Below are positions 2,535 to 10,600 of a stretch of 64,000 nt of DNA, in pieces. The DNA comes from Candidatus Omnitrophota bacterium (GTDB lineage Bacteria > Omnitrophota > Gorgyraeia > Gygaellales > JAQTUX01), in NCBI GenBank assembly GCA_028707125.1, contig JAQTUX010000002.1, positions 16,355 to 80,354 of the forward strand. The letters run 5' to 3'. The notes under the pieces were generated by a model. The model ran no database searches and was not told the DNA's origin. It saw nothing but the letters and a program-made list of their open reading frames with translations. The position numbers and the translations under genes were made by a program. Numbering within the stretch: the stretch's first letter is position 1; each line of letters starts with the position of its first letter.

Positions 2535-4162
2535 TGCTTCATCCTGTATTTCTGCTCACTCAAAGGCACCCACCATTTGATAAAATTCCAGCCGATCCCC
2601 AAAGGCGCGGCCTCAACGCCCCTGAAGCGCTTATGAAGCGCCTGCAAAGAATCAGGCACGTAGAGGAACATATACGGCTGGTCGTCATAAATCATCTTGT
2701 GCGCCTTATGGTAATACCCTTTACGCTTATCTATGTCAAACTCGCGCCTGGCCTCATTCAGCAGGCGGTCAACCTCAGCGTTCTTATAGCCGATAAAATT
2801 GAATTCTCCTTCTCTGGTCTTGGAGGAATGCCAGATATCAAAGATATCGGGTTCGCGGCCCAGCGACCACCCCAGGAGCACGGCGTCAAAATCACGCTTG
2901 TCAATATACTCCGCCAGCAGCACGCTCCATTCTATGACCTTGAGCTTCACCTTTACGCCTAACGGCTCAAGGCGCCTCTGGATTATTTCGGCAACGCGAA
3001 TCCTCTGCTCATTGCCCTGATTAGTGATGATGGTGAACTCAAATACCCTGCCGCCTTTGTCCAGCCAGCCGTCATTATCGCTATCATGCCAACCGGCTTC
3101 AGCCAACAGCTTCTTTGACATCGCGGGATCAAAGTGGCGCGCCAACACCTCCTTATTGTATGCCCATGATTCAGGGGCAAAAGGCCCGGTAGCCGGCCTG
3201 CCCAGCCCCAACAGCACGATCTTAATGATCTCATTCTTATCAACCGCGTAGTCCAGCGCCTGCCTCACCCTTACATCTTTGAATAGATCGTTGTTCAGAT
3301 TATAACCTAAATAGGTAAAACCAAAACTGGGCAGGTTATATTTGGAGAAACGGCTCCGGAAAAACCCGGAATCCGTCTGCCTCCTGTACTGCAAAGGCGT
3401 CAGCCCGGCTGAATCTATGTTTTCCATCTGAAGCTCAAGGAATATCGTCGCCGTATCAGGGATGACCCTGTAGACATACCTGTCTATGAACGGCCTGCCT
3501 TCAAAGTATTCGCTGTTGGCTTCCAGCTCTATCCTGTCCTGCGTAAGCCATCTCTTGAACTTATAGGGGCCGGTGCCTACGGGGCGGCGGGAAAAATCAG
3601 ATATGTCCAGGTCCTCATTCTTAAGCAGATGCTCCGGCATGATCCACATACCCCAGCTGCTCAGGCCCGGAGAAAACGGCTCTTTGTATCTTACCCTCAC
3701 CGTATGATCGTCAACCGCTTCCAGTTCAGCGACCTTCTCAAAGTCACCGGAATAAGGCGTCTTGACTTTCGGGTCAACCAGCTTATTATAGGTAAATTCA
3801 ACATCGCGGCTGGTGAATTCCCTGCCGTCATGCCACTTGACGCCGCGCCTTAAATGAAACACGATGGTCAGCCCCGCGTCAAGCACATCCCAGCTCTCTG
3901 CCAGGTCGCCGGTCAGTTTTATGTCTTTATCGTATTTAAGCAGGCCGTTAAAGATCAAGCCGCAGATCTCAGCGGAAGAGGAATCAGAGGCAAGTATGGG
4001 TATGAGCGTGCGCGCGTCGCCGATGGAAACGGAAACAAAGGCATCGCCTTGATCCCCGGCATAGCATACGGCGTTCAGAGAAAACAAAAGGACTATCGCT
4101 ATCAGCAATAGTCCTCTAAAATCCTGCCTTGGGTTCCGGTTATTTTGCTTGCTCAGGCACAC
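2531..4162 (-). CDS. Periplasmic substrate-binding protein of a peptide/nickel ABC transporter (SBP family 5).
   Basis: 543 aa with a signal-peptide-like N-terminus and family-5 SBP length and composition. It lies immediately upstream of the permease genes and overlaps the secG 3' end by about 23 nt. Confidence 0.75.
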
Positions 4163-5281: not shown

Positions 5282-6462
5282 TATTTTTTGTCCTTCAGTG
5301 CCGCGATGCCGGGAAGGATTTTTCCCTCCATAAGCTCAAGAGATGCCCCGCCGCCGGTTGAGATGTGGGTCATTTTGTCTTCCAGTTTAAATTTGGCTAT
5401 TGCCGCCGCGGTATCGCCGCCGCCGATTATCGTGGTGGCTCCCAACGCGGCTATCAGGTTGGCTATCTCTTCTGTGCCCTTCTTAAAAGAATCCCATTCG
5501 GAAACCCCAAGCGGGCCGTTCCATACTACTGTCTTGGCGCCTTTTAAGGCGGCCTTGAACTTTTCTATTGTCTTTGGCCCGATATCAAGGGCCATCAGGC
5601 CTTCGGGGATATCCTCGGAGTCAATAACGTGGGGCTCTGCCGAGGCGTCAAACCTGTCAGACGCTACATGGTCTACAGGAAGGGCTATGTTCACATTCTT
5701 TGTCCTGGCGTCGTCCAGGATCTTCTTGGCGATATTTACTTTATCCGGCTCAAGCTTGGAACTGCCGACATTCTTGCCTAAGGCAACAAGGAAGGTGTAG
5801 GCCATTCCTCCGCCGATTATGATGCAGTCGGCCTTGGGCAGCAGATTTTCGATCACACCTATTTTGTCGGAGATCTTGGCGCCGCCGAGGATTATCACGA
5901 AGGGCTTTTTGGGTTTATCCAGGGCGCCGATAAGGTACTCTATTTCTTTCTCCAGCAGGAAGCCGGCTACCGAAGGCAGGTATTTTGTAACGCCTTCTGT
6001 TGATGCGTGCGCTCTATGGGCTGTGCCGAAGGCGTCATTGACGAATATGTCTGCCAGGCCTGCCAGTTCTTTGGCGAAGGCAGGGTCATTGGCTTCTTCT
6101 TCGGCGTGGAATCTCAAGTTCTCCAGCAGGATGACTTTTTCTTTCGCGGCATCGACTTCTGCCTTGACTTTGACGCAGTCGTTGAGTTTTTTCACGGGCA
6201 TATTCAGGAGTTTGTTTAATCTCTCGGCTACGGGCTGTAAGCTGTATTTTGCCTCCGGCTTGCCCTTTGGCCTGCCCAGATGGCTCATCAGGATTAACTT
6301 TGCCGCGCCTTTGTCCAGGATGTATTTCATTGTGGGGACTGCCGCGCGTATTCTGATGTCATCGGTGATGTTCAAAGATTCATCGAGCGGCACATTAAAG
6401 TCCGCCCGCATAAGCACTTTTTTGCCTTTCAGGTCAATGTCTCTAATAGTCATTTTATCCAT
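5281..6462 (-). CDS. pgk: Phosphoglycerate kinase.
   Basis: [27 protein letters not shown] aligns to the Pgk N-terminus. The likely start is the ATG at 6462, with GGAGG 7 nt upstream. The ORF-track start at 6531 is a GTG inside an upstream hairpin and is probably an over-extension. Confidence 0.93.
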
Positions 6463-6520
6463 AGTCATACCTCCGAAAGAACATATTTTACGCCAATATG
6501 TCTTTTTGTCAATACTTTCT

Positions 6521-6600
6521 CCTCTACACACTTACGTGTGTAGAATCGTCTATCTTCCAAGCTTACCATGCCCCACACGTAAGTGTGGGGTAGCATTTCG
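6521..6600. repeat. Dual-hairpin intergenic element, copy 1: tctacacacTTACgtgtgtaga, a roughly 28-nt spacer, then ccccacacGTAAgtgtgggg.
   Basis: Two perfect 8-9 bp stems with 4-nt loops. A near-identical unit recurs at 26425-26503, and a single-hairpin version at 46711-46730. It lies upstream of a TTGACA-16-TAAAAT promoter for pgk. Confidence 0.7.
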
Positions 6601-6766
6601 TTCTAGGCAGCGGGGCCTGTCTTTGGACAGCCCCACCCCGTGCTCATTACCATAACGGACGGGAGAACTCCGCGCGGGGCGGGGCGCCCCGTCCAAAGCC
6701 ACCCGCTGAGACATCAGCGAGACATCCTCAACGTCCCTCGAAACCCAGCCAAGCCATCCGCTACAA
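6596..6766. repeat. GC-rich palindromic repeat, copy A (REP/MITE-like), the left boundary of the low-GC cassette.
   Basis: cctgtctttggacagccccaccccgtgctcattac ... gaactccgcgcggggcggggcgccccgtccaaagccaccc is near-identical to the reverse complement of 8966-9068. It contains internal inverted sub-repeats (ctttggac...gtccaaag). Confidence 0.75.
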
Positions 6767-6907
6767 TAATCTGTCGGCACCAAAACAAAACGGCGCCAAT
6801 TTCTCAGCGCCGATAAGTGTCACATTTTGTGACACCTTAATATTTCTTCTATAACTCGTTAGGGGTAATTAGATTGCGTAAAGCGCCTGAAGGATTAGCG
6901 ATTAGGA

Positions 6908-8131
6908 TTATACGGTAAATCTTTCAACAGTAGTCATATCTATAATCCCAGAACTAATATTCTTCAAAATGATAAAAGGTTTTAATAATGGATTTTTAAA
7001 TCGATATCTGTATCGTTTAGGTTTACCTATCTTTTCTAAAACATCTCCTCGATCGGCACTACATAATTGACTTAAATTATACGCGAAATAAGAAACAGTC
7101 ATCGTCGTCCTTTCGGTTATATATTTAAGAGGGGCTAAAATATCCATTGCACGGAAAGTTCCGTAATCATCTACAGGTGCCAAAGCACAAGCAAGCAAAA
7201 CTTCGCTAAACATTGTTTTCTTTGAAGCTATAGTTGCTTTTTGATACAAATCTCTTATGCTTTCTTGTGTATCATCTAAGGCCTGTTCTATTGCCATTTC
7301 AAAATCTGCTGAAGTGATTTCATTTCTTTCACTAATAATAGCTTGTTTAGCACAATATTTAGATAACAAATGAGTATAATGCGGAAATCCTTGAGATAGA
7401 CTTGCAATGCGATTTTTTATTTCCTCGTTCATGTTGAGCGCTAAAATACTAAGACCCTTATTTATGATCTCCTTGAGTTCTTCACGAGACATACGTTGAA
7501 GAAAGACTTGCCGAAGATTTCTTTCAATCGAAGCGTGTTCTCCTATTAACTCATTTACATTATGTGCAACGCCAACTATAACTAAAGTAACGTTAAATAA
7601 ACTGTCGGAAAAAGCTTTAATAATATCTGAAAAAAGTCGCTTAGTTTTAGTATCGTCTACTCTATCAAATTCATCAATAATTAATATTATAAATTTCGAA
7701 ATCTTCTCGAAAATATGTACAACATCATCTGGATTTATTGGCTTATCTGGAGAAAGAAAGCCATTAAGAGAAAAGGATTTTAACTCTGTATCTTTACCAA
7801 AGCCAAGCTTAGCCTGCTCTGAGGTTATATATATCCGCTTAAGCAATTTTCTCCAGATAGCTGAAAAATCATCATTGGTAACGCAGTTTACTTTAACAAC
7901 TATTTGAGCAGGTAATAACTCATTAATTATATTCGATAAAGAAGTCTTTCCAACCCCCCTCTCTCCGTATAAAATAGCATGACGTCCTTTTTCGTTTATG
8001 CTTGCATAAACTGCATCAATTTGCGATATTCTCCCTGCAAATAAATCTTTCTTATCAATAGGTGCGGATGGTGAAAATATGGAATCTAATAATATAAGTT
8101 TTTCTGTCTTAGGGTCGATTTGTTGATCCAT
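6908..8131 (-). CDS. AAA+ ATPase of the ATPase_2 (Arch_ATPase, COG1672-like) family, with a C-terminal DUF234-like domain I take to be a winged helix.
   Basis: Walker A GERGVGKTSL and Walker B IILIIDEFD. The C-terminal KPKRYRYRFKNPLLKPFI resembles the DUF234 motif. The gene is AT-rich relative to its flanks and has an AAGGGAGGA RBS. Confidence 0.7.
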   Translation of the reverse strand: MDQQIDPKTEKLILLDSIFSPSAPIDKKDLFAGRISQIDAVYASINEKGRHAILYGERGVGKTSLSNIINELLPAQIVVKVNCVTNDDFSAIWRKLLKRIYITSEQAKLGFGKDTELKSFSLNGFLSPDKPINPDDVVHIFEKISKFIILIIDEFDRVDDTKTKRLFSDIIKAFSDSLFNVTLVIVGVAHNVNELIGEHASIERNLRQVFLQRMSREELKEIINKGLSILALNMNEEIKNRIASLSQGFPHYTHLLSKYCAKQAIISERNEITSADFEMAIEQALDDTQESIRDLYQKATIASKKTMFSEVLLACALAPVDDYGTFRAMDILAPLKYITERTTMTVSYFAYNLSQLCSADRGDVLEKIGKPKRYRYRFKNPLLKPFIILKNISSGIIDMTTVERFTV

Positions 8132-8236
8132 GAGTCCTCCCTTTTTATGCAGAATAAATTCTCCAGCCGCTTTACATTACTTCCGTTACCACAAGAAATT
8201 ATTTCAATGAGAACCGTCCCCGTTACACGTATATTT

Positions 8237-8764
8237 CTATTGTAATTCATCTCTGCTGCCTACTTTAAAAAGCTTTGTAATACGGCTATCAGTTCTTAGT
8301 TTTAAATTCTTATCTCTAGCAATATCTATCATAAATTTTTTTACTGCTTTAAAAAAATCTCTGGTAAAACGTGGTATGCTTATAAGAACTAAATCTTTCT
8401 CTTTAGAGGGGTTATAAATATGTTCCGAACCATTATGATAAACAAAGATTTTACAGCTTTTCGTTTCACTTAAACGTGATTCCACTCCATATCTATGAAC
8501 AATTCCGCACCTTGCTCCATATATATCTATACTTCTATATTGATATGATTGCTGTAAATCTGTTTTCATATATTTTTCTACCCAATTAATATAATCTTTT
8601 CGCTTAACTTCCTTTTGTGCCAATGGCATTGCTAAAAAAGCCATCGCGTCAATTGCAGAAAGAGTAAGTATAACTGAACCAGCTACAATACCATTATTTT
8701 CCGCTTTTTTAATATCTCCACAAATACCATCAACTATAATCTCTATATAAAGACTTTTAGCCAT
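8237..8764 (-). CDS. Hypothetical protein of 175 aa, co-located with the ATPase in the low-GC cassette.
   Basis: Clean ORF with AT-rich codon usage matching the neighbouring ATPase. An upstream TTGAGC-16-TATAAT promoter is present. I recognise no family. Confidence 0.5.
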   Translation of the reverse strand: MAKSLYIEIIVDGICGDIKKAENNGIVAGSVILTLSAIDAMAFLAMPLAQKEVKRKDYINWVEKYMKTDLQQSYQYRSIDIYGARCGIVHRYGVESRLSETKSCKIFVYHNGSEHIYNPSKEKDLVLISIPRFTRDFFKAVKKFMIDIARDKNLKLRTDSRITKLFKVGSRDELQ

Positions 8765-8857
8765 ATAACAATCCGAATAACTTACTAATTGTTCATCTTT
8801 TCTATTATACCATCCCGCGGGCGGGGCTCAAATGGAATTTGGAGTTATCCACAACTG

Positions 8858-8929
8858 TAGGGGAGGTTTAAACCTCCCCTACCACTTATATAATATAAAA
8901 GGTGGTCGCAAATTGCGACCACCTTTTAT
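8858..8929. terminator. Pair of perfect hairpins (gtaggggaggtttaaacctcccctac, then ataaaaggtggtcgcaaattgcgaccaccttttat). The second looks like a bidirectional intrinsic terminator.
   Basis: Perfect 9-13 bp stems. The second stem is flanked by A-runs and T-runs on both sides. Confidence 0.55.
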
Positions 8930-8940
8930 ATTATTTCGTA

Positions 8941-9093
8941 GCGTCTGGCTTGGCTGTGATTGCCTCAGTGGGTGGCTTTGGACGGGGCGCCCCGCCCCGC
9001 GCGGAGTTCACCTATGATGAATTAGTAATGAGCACGGGGTGGGGCTGTCCAAAGACAGGACCCGCTGTCTCGAAACACAGCCAAGACAGACGC
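8941..9093. repeat. GC-rich palindromic repeat, copy B (REP/MITE-like), the right boundary of the low-GC cassette. Its own termini are inverted: gcgtctggcttggctg ... cagccaagacagacgc.
   Basis: The reverse complement matches copy A over about 35 + 40 bp with one or two mismatches. It carries 16-bp terminal inverted repeats and an internal imperfect palindrome. Confidence 0.75.
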
Positions 9094-9095
9094 AG

Positions 9096-9127
9096 AAAGT
9101 GTTCCTGAGCGAGAAAGGCAACGGGTT
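9096..9127. repeat. 32-bp direct repeat DR1 (tgagcgagaaaggcaacgggttcattgcatag), followed by a UUCG-type hairpin at 9131-9160.
   Basis: Matches 9849-9880 at 29 of 32 positions in direct orientation. The two copies bracket the protease module. Confidence 0.7.
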
Positions 9128-9185
9128 CATTGCATAGAGATTGCTTCGCCCCTTCGGGGCTCGCAATGACGGAAGCGGCAATTCG

Positions 9186-9584
9186 CTATGATTTTAACGA
9201 AAAGGTAAACTTCGGATAATCTATGGTAAGCAAAAACTTACTCAAGAAACTCTTTACGCCGAGCAGAGAAATGGAAAGATTTGGCAGGAAATCTATTAAA
9301 ACATCCTTAATTGTAAAATCATAAACCTGCAAGCAAACTGTATGCGCATAGGCAATCGTTTCTCCGTTGCCGGTTTTTACCTTTTTAGGATGCCCTTTTT
9401 GCAAATTATGACCGACAATAGCAGCAAAATCGGCTGGGAAGGCGCATTCGTCCGCTCCAGTATCAATTATTCCGTAGGTTCTTAATCTCTTATTTGTATG
9501 AGGATTTATAATAGTTACAGGGAGGGCTACTCGTGGTATATCATTATGGCCAATTTTAATAAAAGGATGATTAACAATATCCAT
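9186..9584 (-). CDS. Retropepsin-like (clan AA) aspartic protease.
   Basis: GIIDTGADECAFP carries the D-T-G-A catalytic signature of retroviral-type aspartyl proteases. The protein is 132 aa, consistent with a single-domain homodimeric retropepsin. Confidence 0.7.
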   Translation of the reverse strand: MDIVNHPFIKIGHNDIPRVALPVTIINPHTNKRLRTYGIIDTGADECAFPADFAAIVGHNLQKGHPKKVKTGNGETIAYAHTVCLQVYDFTIKDVLIDFLPNLSISLLGVKSFLSKFLLTIDYPKFTFSLKS

Positions 9585-9784
9585 TAGTAGATTTGCGCCA
9601 TGCCTTTTAATGGCACAAATACCACAACGGGATTATTATAGCCCTTTTTTACTGCCTTTTTAAAGGCCTCCTGAGCAGTATCGCCGTAGCCGATAACCCT
9701 GGAATCATCAAAATCCCGCATCGCTACATATCTGCCGTTATATCTATTGCCTTTTATAAGCGTCTTTATCATTTTTATCACCAA
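9584..9784 (-). CDS. Small 66-aa protein that I recall as DUF5678-like, encoded upstream of the protease with an ATGA stop/start overlap.
   Basis: The sequence, including RYNGRYVAM ... VVFVP, resembles what I recall of the DUF5678 family. It is translationally coupled to the protease gene. A TTGGCA-17-TATAAT promoter ends about 10 nt before the ATG, so the transcript is probably leaderless. Confidence 0.5.
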   Translation of the reverse strand: MVIKMIKTLIKGNRYNGRYVAMRDFDDSRVIGYGDTAQEAFKKAVKKGYNNPVVVFVPLKGMAQIY

Positions 9785-9848
9785 TTTAATTATACAACAA
9801 TCTTGCTAATTTGCCAATGGTTTTCTTCTACAGGCAGGGCCCCTCTCT

Positions 9849-9880
9849 TGAGCGAGAAAAGCAACGGGTTCATAGCACAG
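9849..9880. repeat. 32-bp direct repeat DR2 (tgagcgagaaaagcaacgggttcatagcacag).
   Basis: Direct copy of DR1 at 9096-9127. Confidence 0.7.
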
Positions 9881-9890
9881 GGGTTATAAA

Positions 9891-9917
9891 CTTGAGGTGC
9901 CAAATTGGCACCTCAAG
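9891..9917 (-). terminator. Intrinsic terminator downstream of phoU.
   Basis: Perfect 11-bp stem with a 5-nt loop (cttgaggtgcc aaatt ggcacctcaag). On the minus strand it is followed by TTTAT, 15 nt after the phoU stop. Confidence 0.7.
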
Positions 9918-9931
9918 TTGGGGCGAGGGAT

Positions 9932-10600
9932 TTACTGCAATTTCTCGGGATGATGCCGGACGACTTCTGCCTGGACCATATAGATCACGTCCTCGGCGAT
10001 ATTGGTAGCGTGGTCGCATATGCGCTCCAGGAAACGGGCTATCAGCAACAGCTGGACAGCCCTGGGGGCCGTAGAGCCGTCCTTGACCATGTAATCTTCT
10101 ATGAGCTCCTTTTGTATCACATCGCGGAGCTGATCGGCCTGCGAATCAGACAACAGGACCTGCTTTGCCAGGGCGATATCCCCTTTTACGAACGCGTCTA
10201 TGGACATCTTTACCATATTCTGCGCCACAGCCGTCAGCCTGGGTATATCTATAAGCGGCTTTAACAGCGGCTTGTCCACTATCTCAAGTGTCCGCTGCGC
10301 TATATCCACGGCAATGTCCGCTATCCTTTCCAGTTCAGCGTTTATCTTCATACCGGTGGTGATAAAACGAAGATCCTTTGCCATCGGCTGATAGCGCGCT
10401 ATCAGATCAATGCACTTCTCATCCACGGACAATTCCAGCTTATCAATATCGGCGTCGTTGCTTATGACGCTCTTTACCATATCCTTATCCCGGCCCTTCA
10501 GCGCCTCTACTGATCTATAGATGGCCTCTTCTGCCAGGGCAGCCATCTTCAGGATCTCCTTGTTCAGTTCTTTCAACTCCTGGTCAACATGCCTTTCCAT
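9932..10600 (-). CDS. phoU: Phosphate transport system regulatory protein PhoU.
   Basis: Two PhoU repeats. The gene sits at the 3' end of the pst operon. Confidence 0.9.
   Translation of the reverse strand: MERHVDQELKELNKEILKMAALAEEAIYRSVEALKGRDKDMVKSVISNDADIDKLELSVDEKCIDLIARYQPMAKDLRFITTGMKINAELERIADIAVDIAQRTLEIVDKPLLKPLIDIPRLTAVAQNMVKMSIDAFVKGDIALAKQVLLSDSQADQLRDVIQKELIEDYMVKDGSTAPRAVQLLLIARFLERICDHATNIAEDVIYMVQAEVVRHHPEKLQ

Follow-up and report, generated by a model that had tools for sequence, protein, structure and literature searches.

A horizontally acquired two-gene cassette encoding a DUF5678-family protein and a retropepsin-like aspartic protease downstream of phoU in an Omnitrophota genome

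A 64,000-nt stretch of the Candidatus Omnitrophota bacterium contig JAQTUX010000002.1 (hereafter the window, in whose coordinates all positions are given) contains, just downstream of phoU, a compact cassette in which a gene for a small DUF5678-family protein is followed by a gene for a retropepsin-like aspartic protease. All genes in the cassette region are encoded by the minus strand. In transcriptional order, phoU (10600-9932) comes first and is followed by a terminator-like hairpin (9919-9889), the upstream copy of a direct repeat (9846-9885), a promoter (9817-9789), the DUF5678-family gene (9584-9772), the protease gene (9186-9584), a GC-rich hairpin 3' of the protease stop codon (9140-9170, minus strand), the downstream repeat copy (9103-9142) and, last, a 159-nt palindromic element (9098-8940), which the downstream repeat copy abuts. 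The GC content of the cassette is about 40% as compared with 52-55% in the flanking genes phoU and pgk. The comparisons described below show that the region 9186-9820 is a horizontally acquired, self-contained two-gene cassette and that the same pair forms a strict unit in many phyla.

The 132-residue protein scored above the cut-offs of two Pfam families (29.8 bits against PF13975, cut-off 28.2; 28.7 bits against PF13650, cut-off 24.3) and contains the sequence GIIDTGADEC, in which D41-T-G-A is the catalytic motif. Its AlphaFold2 (AF2) model had a mean confidence (pLDDT) of 90, and the top Foldseek matches to this predicted structure were ApRick (5c9f/5c9d), HIV-1 protease and HTLV protease, with a probability of 1.00. 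ApRick was also the sole sequence match in the PDB (E = 1e-3). Judged by its Pfam scores and predicted fold, the protein is a retropepsin-like protease of clan AA, as a preliminary description of this DNA, made from the sequence alone, had proposed for a 132-residue D-T-G-A protein. Membership of the AF_0612 family, which the same description suggested, was not borne out, since the score against TIGR03698 was 19.8 bits and the cut-off is 57.35. DTGADEC, with D41-T-G-A in it, shows no variation across 20 homologues, and the TGNG hairpin tip, Y-x-H-T and PNL...LLG..SFL show little or none. The protease subfamily is separate and tightly conserved, with its own DTGADEC/TGNG/PNL...LLG..SFL signature. 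No exact match to the protease was present in the contig index, although an identical protein exists at NCBI.

The upstream gene encodes a protein that scored 38.6 bits against the Pfam family PF18929 (DUF5678; cut-off 23.2), covering profile positions 4-47 of 49, and its homologues carry precomputed PF18929 matches, in agreement with the DUF5678-like character first proposed for it. We know of no function for DUF5678. The AF2 model predicts a beta-beta-alpha-beta fold (pLDDT 86.6), and the C-terminal ...IY is invariant. The open reading frame (ORF) can also be read from a TTG at 9784, which gives a span of 9584-9784 and 66 residues, the length originally assigned to it. However, the start codon of the family is the ATG at 9772, which gives 62 residues, as in most relatives and in the 62-residue NCBI protein P0121, which is 100% identical. 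Thus, the two minus-strand ORFs and the 132-residue length stand, whereas the small protein has 62 residues. A search with the single 62-residue sequence by word matching reached 3 proteins only, whereas a profile of 69 locus-derived sequences reached more. When 1.84 billion cluster representatives were searched with a profile, 913 DUF5678-like proteins were obtained; the best 150 of these are nearly all 55-136 residues long and have the domain at their very C-terminal end, and a fusion to a protease is not among these 150.

The small gene ends with a TAA at 9584-9586, and the junction reads TAC TAA TGG, so that the ATG of the protease gene shares one base with the upstream stop codon. The overlap is therefore of the TAATG type and not ATGA as first described. 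The two genes are preceded by a sigma-70-type promoter, TTGGCA (9812-9817) and TATAAT (9789-9794) with a 17-nt spacer, which matches the consensus at 11 of 12 positions. Both hexamers are identical in the nearest relative (L082), and the promoter had been correctly recognized before. It was, however, placed too close to the gene, with an end about 10 nt before the first ATG, and the transcript was taken to be leaderless and without a Shine-Dalgarno (SD) sequence. It was revealed that 16 nt separate the -10 box from the ATG, and that these (TAAATTGGTGATAAAA) contain, at 9777-9782 and 4 nt in front of the ATG, the motif GGTGAT, which can base-pair with the 3' end of 16S rRNA. L082 has GGGAGGT at the place of this motif, and an SD-like motif was found 3-11 nt upstream of the ATG in 60 of 74 related loci. 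On these grounds the mRNA is not expected to be leaderless; the predicted transcript has a short SD-containing leader of roughly 10 nt. A promoter match of at least 9/12 was present in 32 of the 74 loci, and the loci with strong promoters have a TATAAT/TATACT/TATAGT-like -10 box mostly about 16-30 nt upstream of the ATG.

We scanned one genome per species and confirmed 184 loci, of which 80 cassette-carrying ones were fetched (L001-L080). More than 500 protease homologues of 132-142 residues were found. The cassette occurs in Omnitrophota, Elusimicrobiota/Endomicrobiia, Nitrospirota, Nitrospinota, Thermodesulfobacteriota/Deltaproteobacteria, Planctomycetota (including Kuenenia), Margulisiibacteriota, Saganbacteria/WOR-1, Firestonebacteria, Lindowbacteria and Brevinema as well as in the archaeon Methanoperedens. 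The fetched loci span at least ten phyla, and their proteases are 54-71% identical to that of the window. In 79 of the 80 loci the protease gene is immediately preceded by a DUF5678-like gene, and the single exception is cut by a contig end; the protease gene was thus not seen to occur without its partner, a point on which the preliminary description had made its pairing depend. The 1-nt stop/start overlap is found in 38 of 79 relatives and an 11-nt overlap in nine, and the junctions range from -49 to +97 nt. The pairwise distances of both proteins correlate across loci (r = 0.77), and the ratios of non-synonymous to synonymous substitutions (dN/dS) relative to L082 (0.24 for the small gene and 0.06 for the protease gene) indicate purifying selection on both. 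The 120 immediate neighbours of the pair belong to 138 Pfam families, none of which was seen more than twice, and no conserved third gene or recombinase was present among them. No paper describing the pair was found in the full-text literature searched. The module is an uncharacterised, widely transferred two-gene cassette.

In the nine loci with the 11-nt overlap (L036, L037, L052, L064, L066, L079, L031, L075, L011), the small ORF has its end inside the protease gene. Where ...IY is otherwise the C-terminus, eight of these small proteins have ...IYYVS, ...IYYVG or a similar ending, and the ninth (L011) is frameshifted. The nine loci form a subgroup in which the cassette has a junction of a separate type.

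The limits of the cassette are given by its nearest relative (L082/L083), in which the protease is 79% and the small protein 85% identical to those of the window and the pair lies downstream of a carbon monoxide dehydrogenase/acetyl-CoA synthase gene. Since the -35 box and the stop codon of the protease gene mark the two ends of the DNA homology between L082 and the window, the conserved unit comprises about 9186-9820 and excludes the hairpin at 9140-9170. This hairpin is absent from L082 and, by this comparison, is outside the conserved cassette.

Within the cassette, the DNA identity between the window and L082 falls from the 5' to the 3' end. The synonymous divergence (window 9186-9772 versus L082 2339-2940) is 0.27 for the small gene and about 2, that is saturated, for the protease gene. 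This gradient suggests either a recombination breakpoint inside the cassette or an extra constraint on the RNA of the small gene.

The cassette is bracketed by the two copies of a direct repeat, 9846-9885 upstream, which adjoins the phoU terminator, and 9103-9142 downstream, with 85% identity over 40 nt. The core of the repeat, 9106-9137 versus 9849-9880, is identical at 29 of 32 positions. The 32-bp repeats of the preliminary description are therefore real and the second copy was correctly placed, although the first was set 10 nt off; at 9096-9127 only 5 of 32 positions agree in register. The window repeat is not coding sequence, and we could not trace where it came from. That the repeat has nothing to do with the module boundaries, either as a chance match or as part of a repeat dispersed genome-wide, we consider highly improbable. 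The adjacent hairpin at 9140-9170 does belong to a dispersed family, and the flanking repeats of two other loci (L003 and L063) are dispersed or of low complexity. Against this, the 64 kb contain two copies where none is expected (100 shuffles), the repeat scores 23 whereas the maximum among 296 cross-locus controls is 15, and the two copies enclose the promoter-to-terminator unit with their inner edges. Moreover, the repeat (GAGCGAGAAARGCAACGGGTTCAT) had no exact match in the scanned metagenome contigs and no significant match in 80 loci of PhoU relatives or in the 80 cassette-carrying loci (L001-L080), which answers in the negative the earlier question of whether it is common genome-wide. 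A candidate third copy beside the left palindromic element (about 6530-6570) aligned at chance level and was rejected, which leaves two copies in total.

A stable hairpin had been noted after each repeat copy. This holds for the phoU terminator-like hairpin at 9889-9919 (-23.3 kcal/mol, z = -7.5), whereas the stability of the hairpin at 9140-9170 does not exceed that of shuffled sequence (z = -0.8), and the two hairpins are unrelated in sequence. The hairpin at 9140-9170 may act as a terminator. It belongs to a family of the form GTCATTGCGAG-variable-CGAAGCAATC that is dispersed in the intergenic DNA of Omnitrophota-type contigs, with 7 matches in 1.09 Mb of fetched loci as against 0.5 expected. 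It is present in a single copy in the window and has a 31/32 match in the PhoU-relative locus L088; the family is also found at L088 1856-1930 and in L098, L029, L060 and L065.

Flanking repeats were looked for at other loci by comparing the 300 nt upstream of the small gene with the 300 nt downstream of the protease gene of each locus. Direct repeats scoring at least 16 were detected in 16 of 74 loci including the window but in none of the 296 cross-locus controls, and controls in the inverted orientation scored at most 14. At the nearest relative, where 185 nt of downstream sequence could be compared, no flanking direct repeat was found. Apart from L003 and L063, the remaining 14 loci have locus-specific repeats of 23-181 nt with 81-100% identity, which lie 23-266 nt upstream and 7-235 nt downstream of the genes. 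Since locus-specific repeats recur at the cassette, its interpretation as a small integrated unit is sound, and the low GC content and the different context of the nearest relative agree with it. In this respect the idea of a tiny integrated element, put forward for the window locus before, gains support. One of the 14 loci, L054, comes from an isolate (Desulfoferrobacter suflitae DRH4) and has a perfect 34-bp repeat pair. The repeat pattern is therefore not an assembly artefact of metagenome-assembled genomes (MAGs).

Several of the repeats are coding and, by our reading of their translations, consist of the ends of host genes. The repeats correspond to the 3' end of asd in L017, of ychF in L074, of pcm (on the other strand) in L008 and of a fucose-synthase/epimerase-like gene in L049 and L040, and to the 5' end of larB in L030 and of a methylase-like gene in L018. 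The two copies of the asd 3' end in L017 differ at 18 of 96 positions, 13 of which are third codon positions, and 14 codons differ synonymously as compared with 2 non-synonymously. In L049, 11 of 20 differences are at third positions and the same stop codon is kept in both copies. This bias indicates that the copies derive from two functional orthologues and that one of them travelled with the cassette from another genome. The synonymous bias and the kept stop codon also argue against decay of a second copy in place.

L049 is itself a locus of a Candidatus Methanoperedens MAG. The pair lies at 3446-4081 between two 109-nt copies of the epimerase/fucose-synthase-like 3' end, and its protease shares 56% identity with that of the window. 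The sequence of this locus points to a transfer between domains.

The repeats had been likened to att sites or target duplications, and a direct reading of this likeness would be an autonomous mobile element, in which one or both proteins catalyse the insertion. The recurrence of the flanking repeats and the lack of any other mobility candidate nearby would suit such an element. However, repeats of such variable length (23-181 nt) and distance from the genes (7-266 nt) are not expected of it; terminal inverted repeats were not found, and the L082 comparison revealed no conserved cassette ends outside the promoter-to-stop region. Furthermore, the repeats differ in every locus, no recombinase is conserved beside the pair, and no transposase family is conserved among the neighbours (no family occurs in more than 2 of 120). 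The repeats are neither att sites nor target duplications of a fixed length. The synonymous bias in L017 derives the second copy from another genome and not from a staggered cut, and the protease has, by prediction, a conventional retropepsin fold with the catalytic motif of a protease. An autonomous element is thus disfavoured and, in our estimate, extremely unlikely.

Because the repeats are variable and locus-specific, consist of conserved gene ends, and are accompanied neither by a recombinase nor by conserved termini, they speak against transposition and site-specific integration and fit recombination with homology on one side only. By such recombination, the cassette would have been inserted just after the phoU terminator, either through a single crossover of the Campbell type, with a circular copy of the cassette that carried host-like DNA, or through homology-facilitated illegitimate recombination of a linear fragment. 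The insertion would have left the imperfect 35-40-nt direct repeat (9103-9142/9846-9885) and would have needed no dedicated recombinase.

The insertion site was compared with the loci of 80 PhoU relatives (L084-L163; 78-92% amino acid identity). The pst-phoU operon is syntenic upstream in these loci, whereas downstream of phoU none of them has pgk, the cassette, the neighbouring ATPase island or the repeat. By this comparison, synteny breaks repeatedly at the 3' end of phoU (window 9932), which makes it a hot spot of insertion, and for this reason a true empty site could not be shown.

Regarding function, we propose that the retropepsin-like protease, which would form a homodimer by analogy with other retropepsins, is the effector of a toxin-antitoxin (TA)- or addiction-type module. 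The co-translated 62-residue protein would be its cognate neutraliser or inhibitor, and the TAATG overlap would keep both products in step. A TA-like function is plausible by analogy. It is favoured since a small upstream gene, the gene overlap, a promoter of its own, strict co-inheritance, a scatter across phyla and domains, unrelated insertion sites and atypical GC content come together in the cassette, and since some copies lie among known TA genes. In its predicted layout, the cassette has what is expected of a TA operon, namely two adjacent co-oriented small genes with a promoter directly upstream and a TAATG junction. Its distribution is patchy, across phyla and one domain boundary. In L081, a Thermodesulfovibrio MAG contig (MIDI01000004.1), two DUF5678 genes (836-1314 and 3240-3428) lie within 4.6 kb among TA-type genes (UPF0175/DUF3368, DUF433 and DUF4258/MqsA-like). 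The first is followed by a 96-residue ORF without a Pfam match and the second has no protease gene. The copies in L040 and L030 adjoin known TA genes according to our reading of the ORFs. Taken jointly, a cassette, its one-sided insertion without a recombinase and a TA/addiction-like function of a protease and its neutraliser are the best explanation of the present results, to which we assign a probability of about 0.5.

A number of observations weigh against this explanation. Flanking repeats occur at only about one locus in five. In L018 the two repeat copies differ to an equal degree at the three codon positions (5/5/4), a pattern that fits duplication in place followed by decay, so that more than one insertion route is possible. 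An empty site, for which the preliminary description had recommended a search, was not found, as the 80 PhoU relatives share nothing downstream of phoU. Classical TA modules are common on plasmids and phages, whereas the protease had no match among PLSDB plasmids or INPHARED phages and was present on 4 of 2.9 million IMG/VR contigs. Most neighbours of the pair are housekeeping genes and not TA or defence islands. Defence-system models in PADLOC gave one weak match to a generic protease model (E = 0.003), and PHROGs gave none for either protein. The small protein is without a fold or sequence link to known antitoxins and has no recognisable DNA-binding fold. Gene decay is not asymmetric, with four protease genes containing a stop codon and two small genes frameshifted. 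Asymmetric decay, in which the toxin is lost and the antitoxin kept, was considered as a TA signature and dropped since counts of 4 versus 2 are uninformative.

The housekeeping neighbours, the lack of enrichment of defence or TA families, and the absence from plasmid and phage collections would also be expected if the protein were an ordinary accessory protease with a cellular substrate that is often transferred. The DUF5678 protein would then be a cofactor, chaperone, adaptor or substrate, and the repeats would be by-products of the generic recombination around any small transferred cassette. The strong purifying selection on the protease (dN/dS 0.06) is in line with this, as are the cellular roles of the bacterial retropepsin-like enzymes RimB (PMC11957791) and Rlo (PMC11957051), as given in the available parts of these reports. 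However, homologues that are 54-71% identical occur in unrelated phyla and one archaeon, and the gene context differs even between the closest relatives. Together with the atypical GC content, the promoter of its own and the lack of conserved partner genes, these are features of a selfish or addictive module rather than of a pathway component. An ordinary accessory role is therefore rather unlikely, though it keeps appreciable weight.

The polarity of the proposed module might also be the reverse, with a harmful 62-residue protein that the protease neutralises by cleavage. Toxin-first two-gene modules such as hicAB and mqsRA are well established. In addition, the C-terminal ...IY of the small protein and the N-terminus of the protease are highly conserved, which could reflect recognition or cleavage, and orphan DUF5678 copies seem rare. 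One does exist in L081, however, and together with the four stop-interrupted protease genes next to an intact small gene it would be lethal if the small protein were the toxin. The small protein shows no fold similarity to known small toxins either. Reverse polarity is thus improbable.

If the protease is the effector, as we favour, a wider claim can be formulated: the pair would be an unrecognised class of the TA or abortive-infection type, with a homodimeric aspartic protease as effector and a 62-residue retropepsin inhibitor. The class would spread without a recombinase between phyla and into archaea by one-sided insertion, with short conserved host gene ends enabling the integration. We offer this joint claim tentatively, as a possibility that is doubtful at present. 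Few proteases are as poorly understood as the stand-alone retropepsins of prokaryotes, and the strict pairing across phyla gives both families a testable hypothesis, that of a protease and its cognate neutraliser. If this hypothesis is right, an aspartic protease joins the types of toxins and effectors, and the small protein is a natural protein inhibitor of the retropepsin fold. The flanking copies of host gene ends bear on the old question of how small addiction-type cassettes move without mobility genes.

Beyond the downstream repeat copy, the window contains a second foreign cassette of 31-36% GC between pgk and the retropepsin cassette. It consists of a gene for a STAND/AAA ATPase (6908-8131, minus strand; nSTAND1; PADLOC candidate PDC-S59, E = 1.6e-12; phrog_6841, E = 8e-58) and a gene for a 175-residue protein without a Pfam match (8237-8764, minus strand; phrog_18591, E = 1.8e-8), and may be phage-derived or a defence pair. 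This low-GC cassette is bracketed by two inverted copies, 94% complementary, of the GC-rich palindrome of about 159 nt, at 6575-6760 and 8940-9098, with matching arms at 6601-6650/9025-9074 and 6662-6713/8961-9012. The palindromic element folds as single-stranded DNA at -49 kcal/mol (z = -7.5) and has no Rfam match; the pair looks like a miniature inverted-repeat transposable element (MITE) or repetitive extragenic palindromic element. Between the gene for the 175-residue protein and the palindromic element, two adjacent perfect hairpins (8855-8929) look like a bidirectional terminator. Their Rfam matches to rli42 and ceN80 were sub-threshold and were rejected as chance matches to hairpin-rich models. 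More generally, Rfam scans of 6300-10100 and 8900-9950 revealed nothing beyond sub-threshold chance matches.

Among known systems, insertion sequences, MITEs, integron cassettes and integrase-borne islands resemble the cassette in that a short foreign segment is bracketed by direct repeats. The cassette differs from them in having no transposase, integrase, terminal inverted repeats or conserved ends, and in having repeats of variable length that consist of host gene ends. In retroviral gag-pro, as in the cassette, the retropepsin ORF overlaps the end of the upstream ORF in a different frame. A fusion by frameshifting of the gag-pro type was considered and rejected, since no slippery heptamer was seen at the junction and the junctions vary from -49 to +97 nt. 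Fused proteins were not found among the best 120 protease and small-protein relatives or the best 150 DUF5678-like proteins. With no slippery heptamer, variable junctions and no fusions among these relatives, coupling by termination and reinitiation is the simplest explanation.

Like the protease of the window, the proteins of TIGR02281 (D-T-G-A type) and of TIGR03698/COG5550 (AF_0612 type) are small single-domain retropepsin-like proteins of bacterial or archaeal, non-viral origin, although the window protease stays far below both cut-offs (26.3 versus 57.95 and 19.8 versus 57.35, respectively). About stand-alone prokaryotic proteases of clan AA it has been stated that 'little is known' (PMC2642776). 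RimB of the RimABK system (PMC11957791) and the secreted Rlo proteases of Pseudomonas aeruginosa (PMC11957051) belong to the same retropepsin structural class, and the available portions of the two reports indicate that retropepsin-like enzymes can have non-selfish regulatory functions. Compared by description only, they have another operon context and other partners, and no DUF5678 partner is described in those portions.

APRc of Rickettsia conorii (ApRick; PDB 5C9B, 5C9D, 5C9F; PMC4140852) is the best match both in sequence (E = 1e-3) and in predicted fold (Foldseek probability 1.00, TM score 0.63-0.72). It shares with the window protease a single retropepsin domain of about 130 residues, the D-T-G-A motif and LLG...L near the C-terminus, although the two are 21-24% identical. 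APRc is a membrane-associated rickettsial surface protease without a DUF5678 partner (PMC4140852), whereas the window protein is free-standing, with 132 residues and no obvious additional domain.

No TA system with an aspartic protease component was found described in the literature searched. The cassette departs from type II TA modules in that its small protein has no recognisable DNA-binding fold and its protease is not on catalogued plasmids or phages. It nevertheless resembles them in its two-gene operon with a small upstream gene, stop/start overlap and promoter of its own, in its patchy spread across phyla, in its insertion between unrelated genes and in its occasional location among TA genes.

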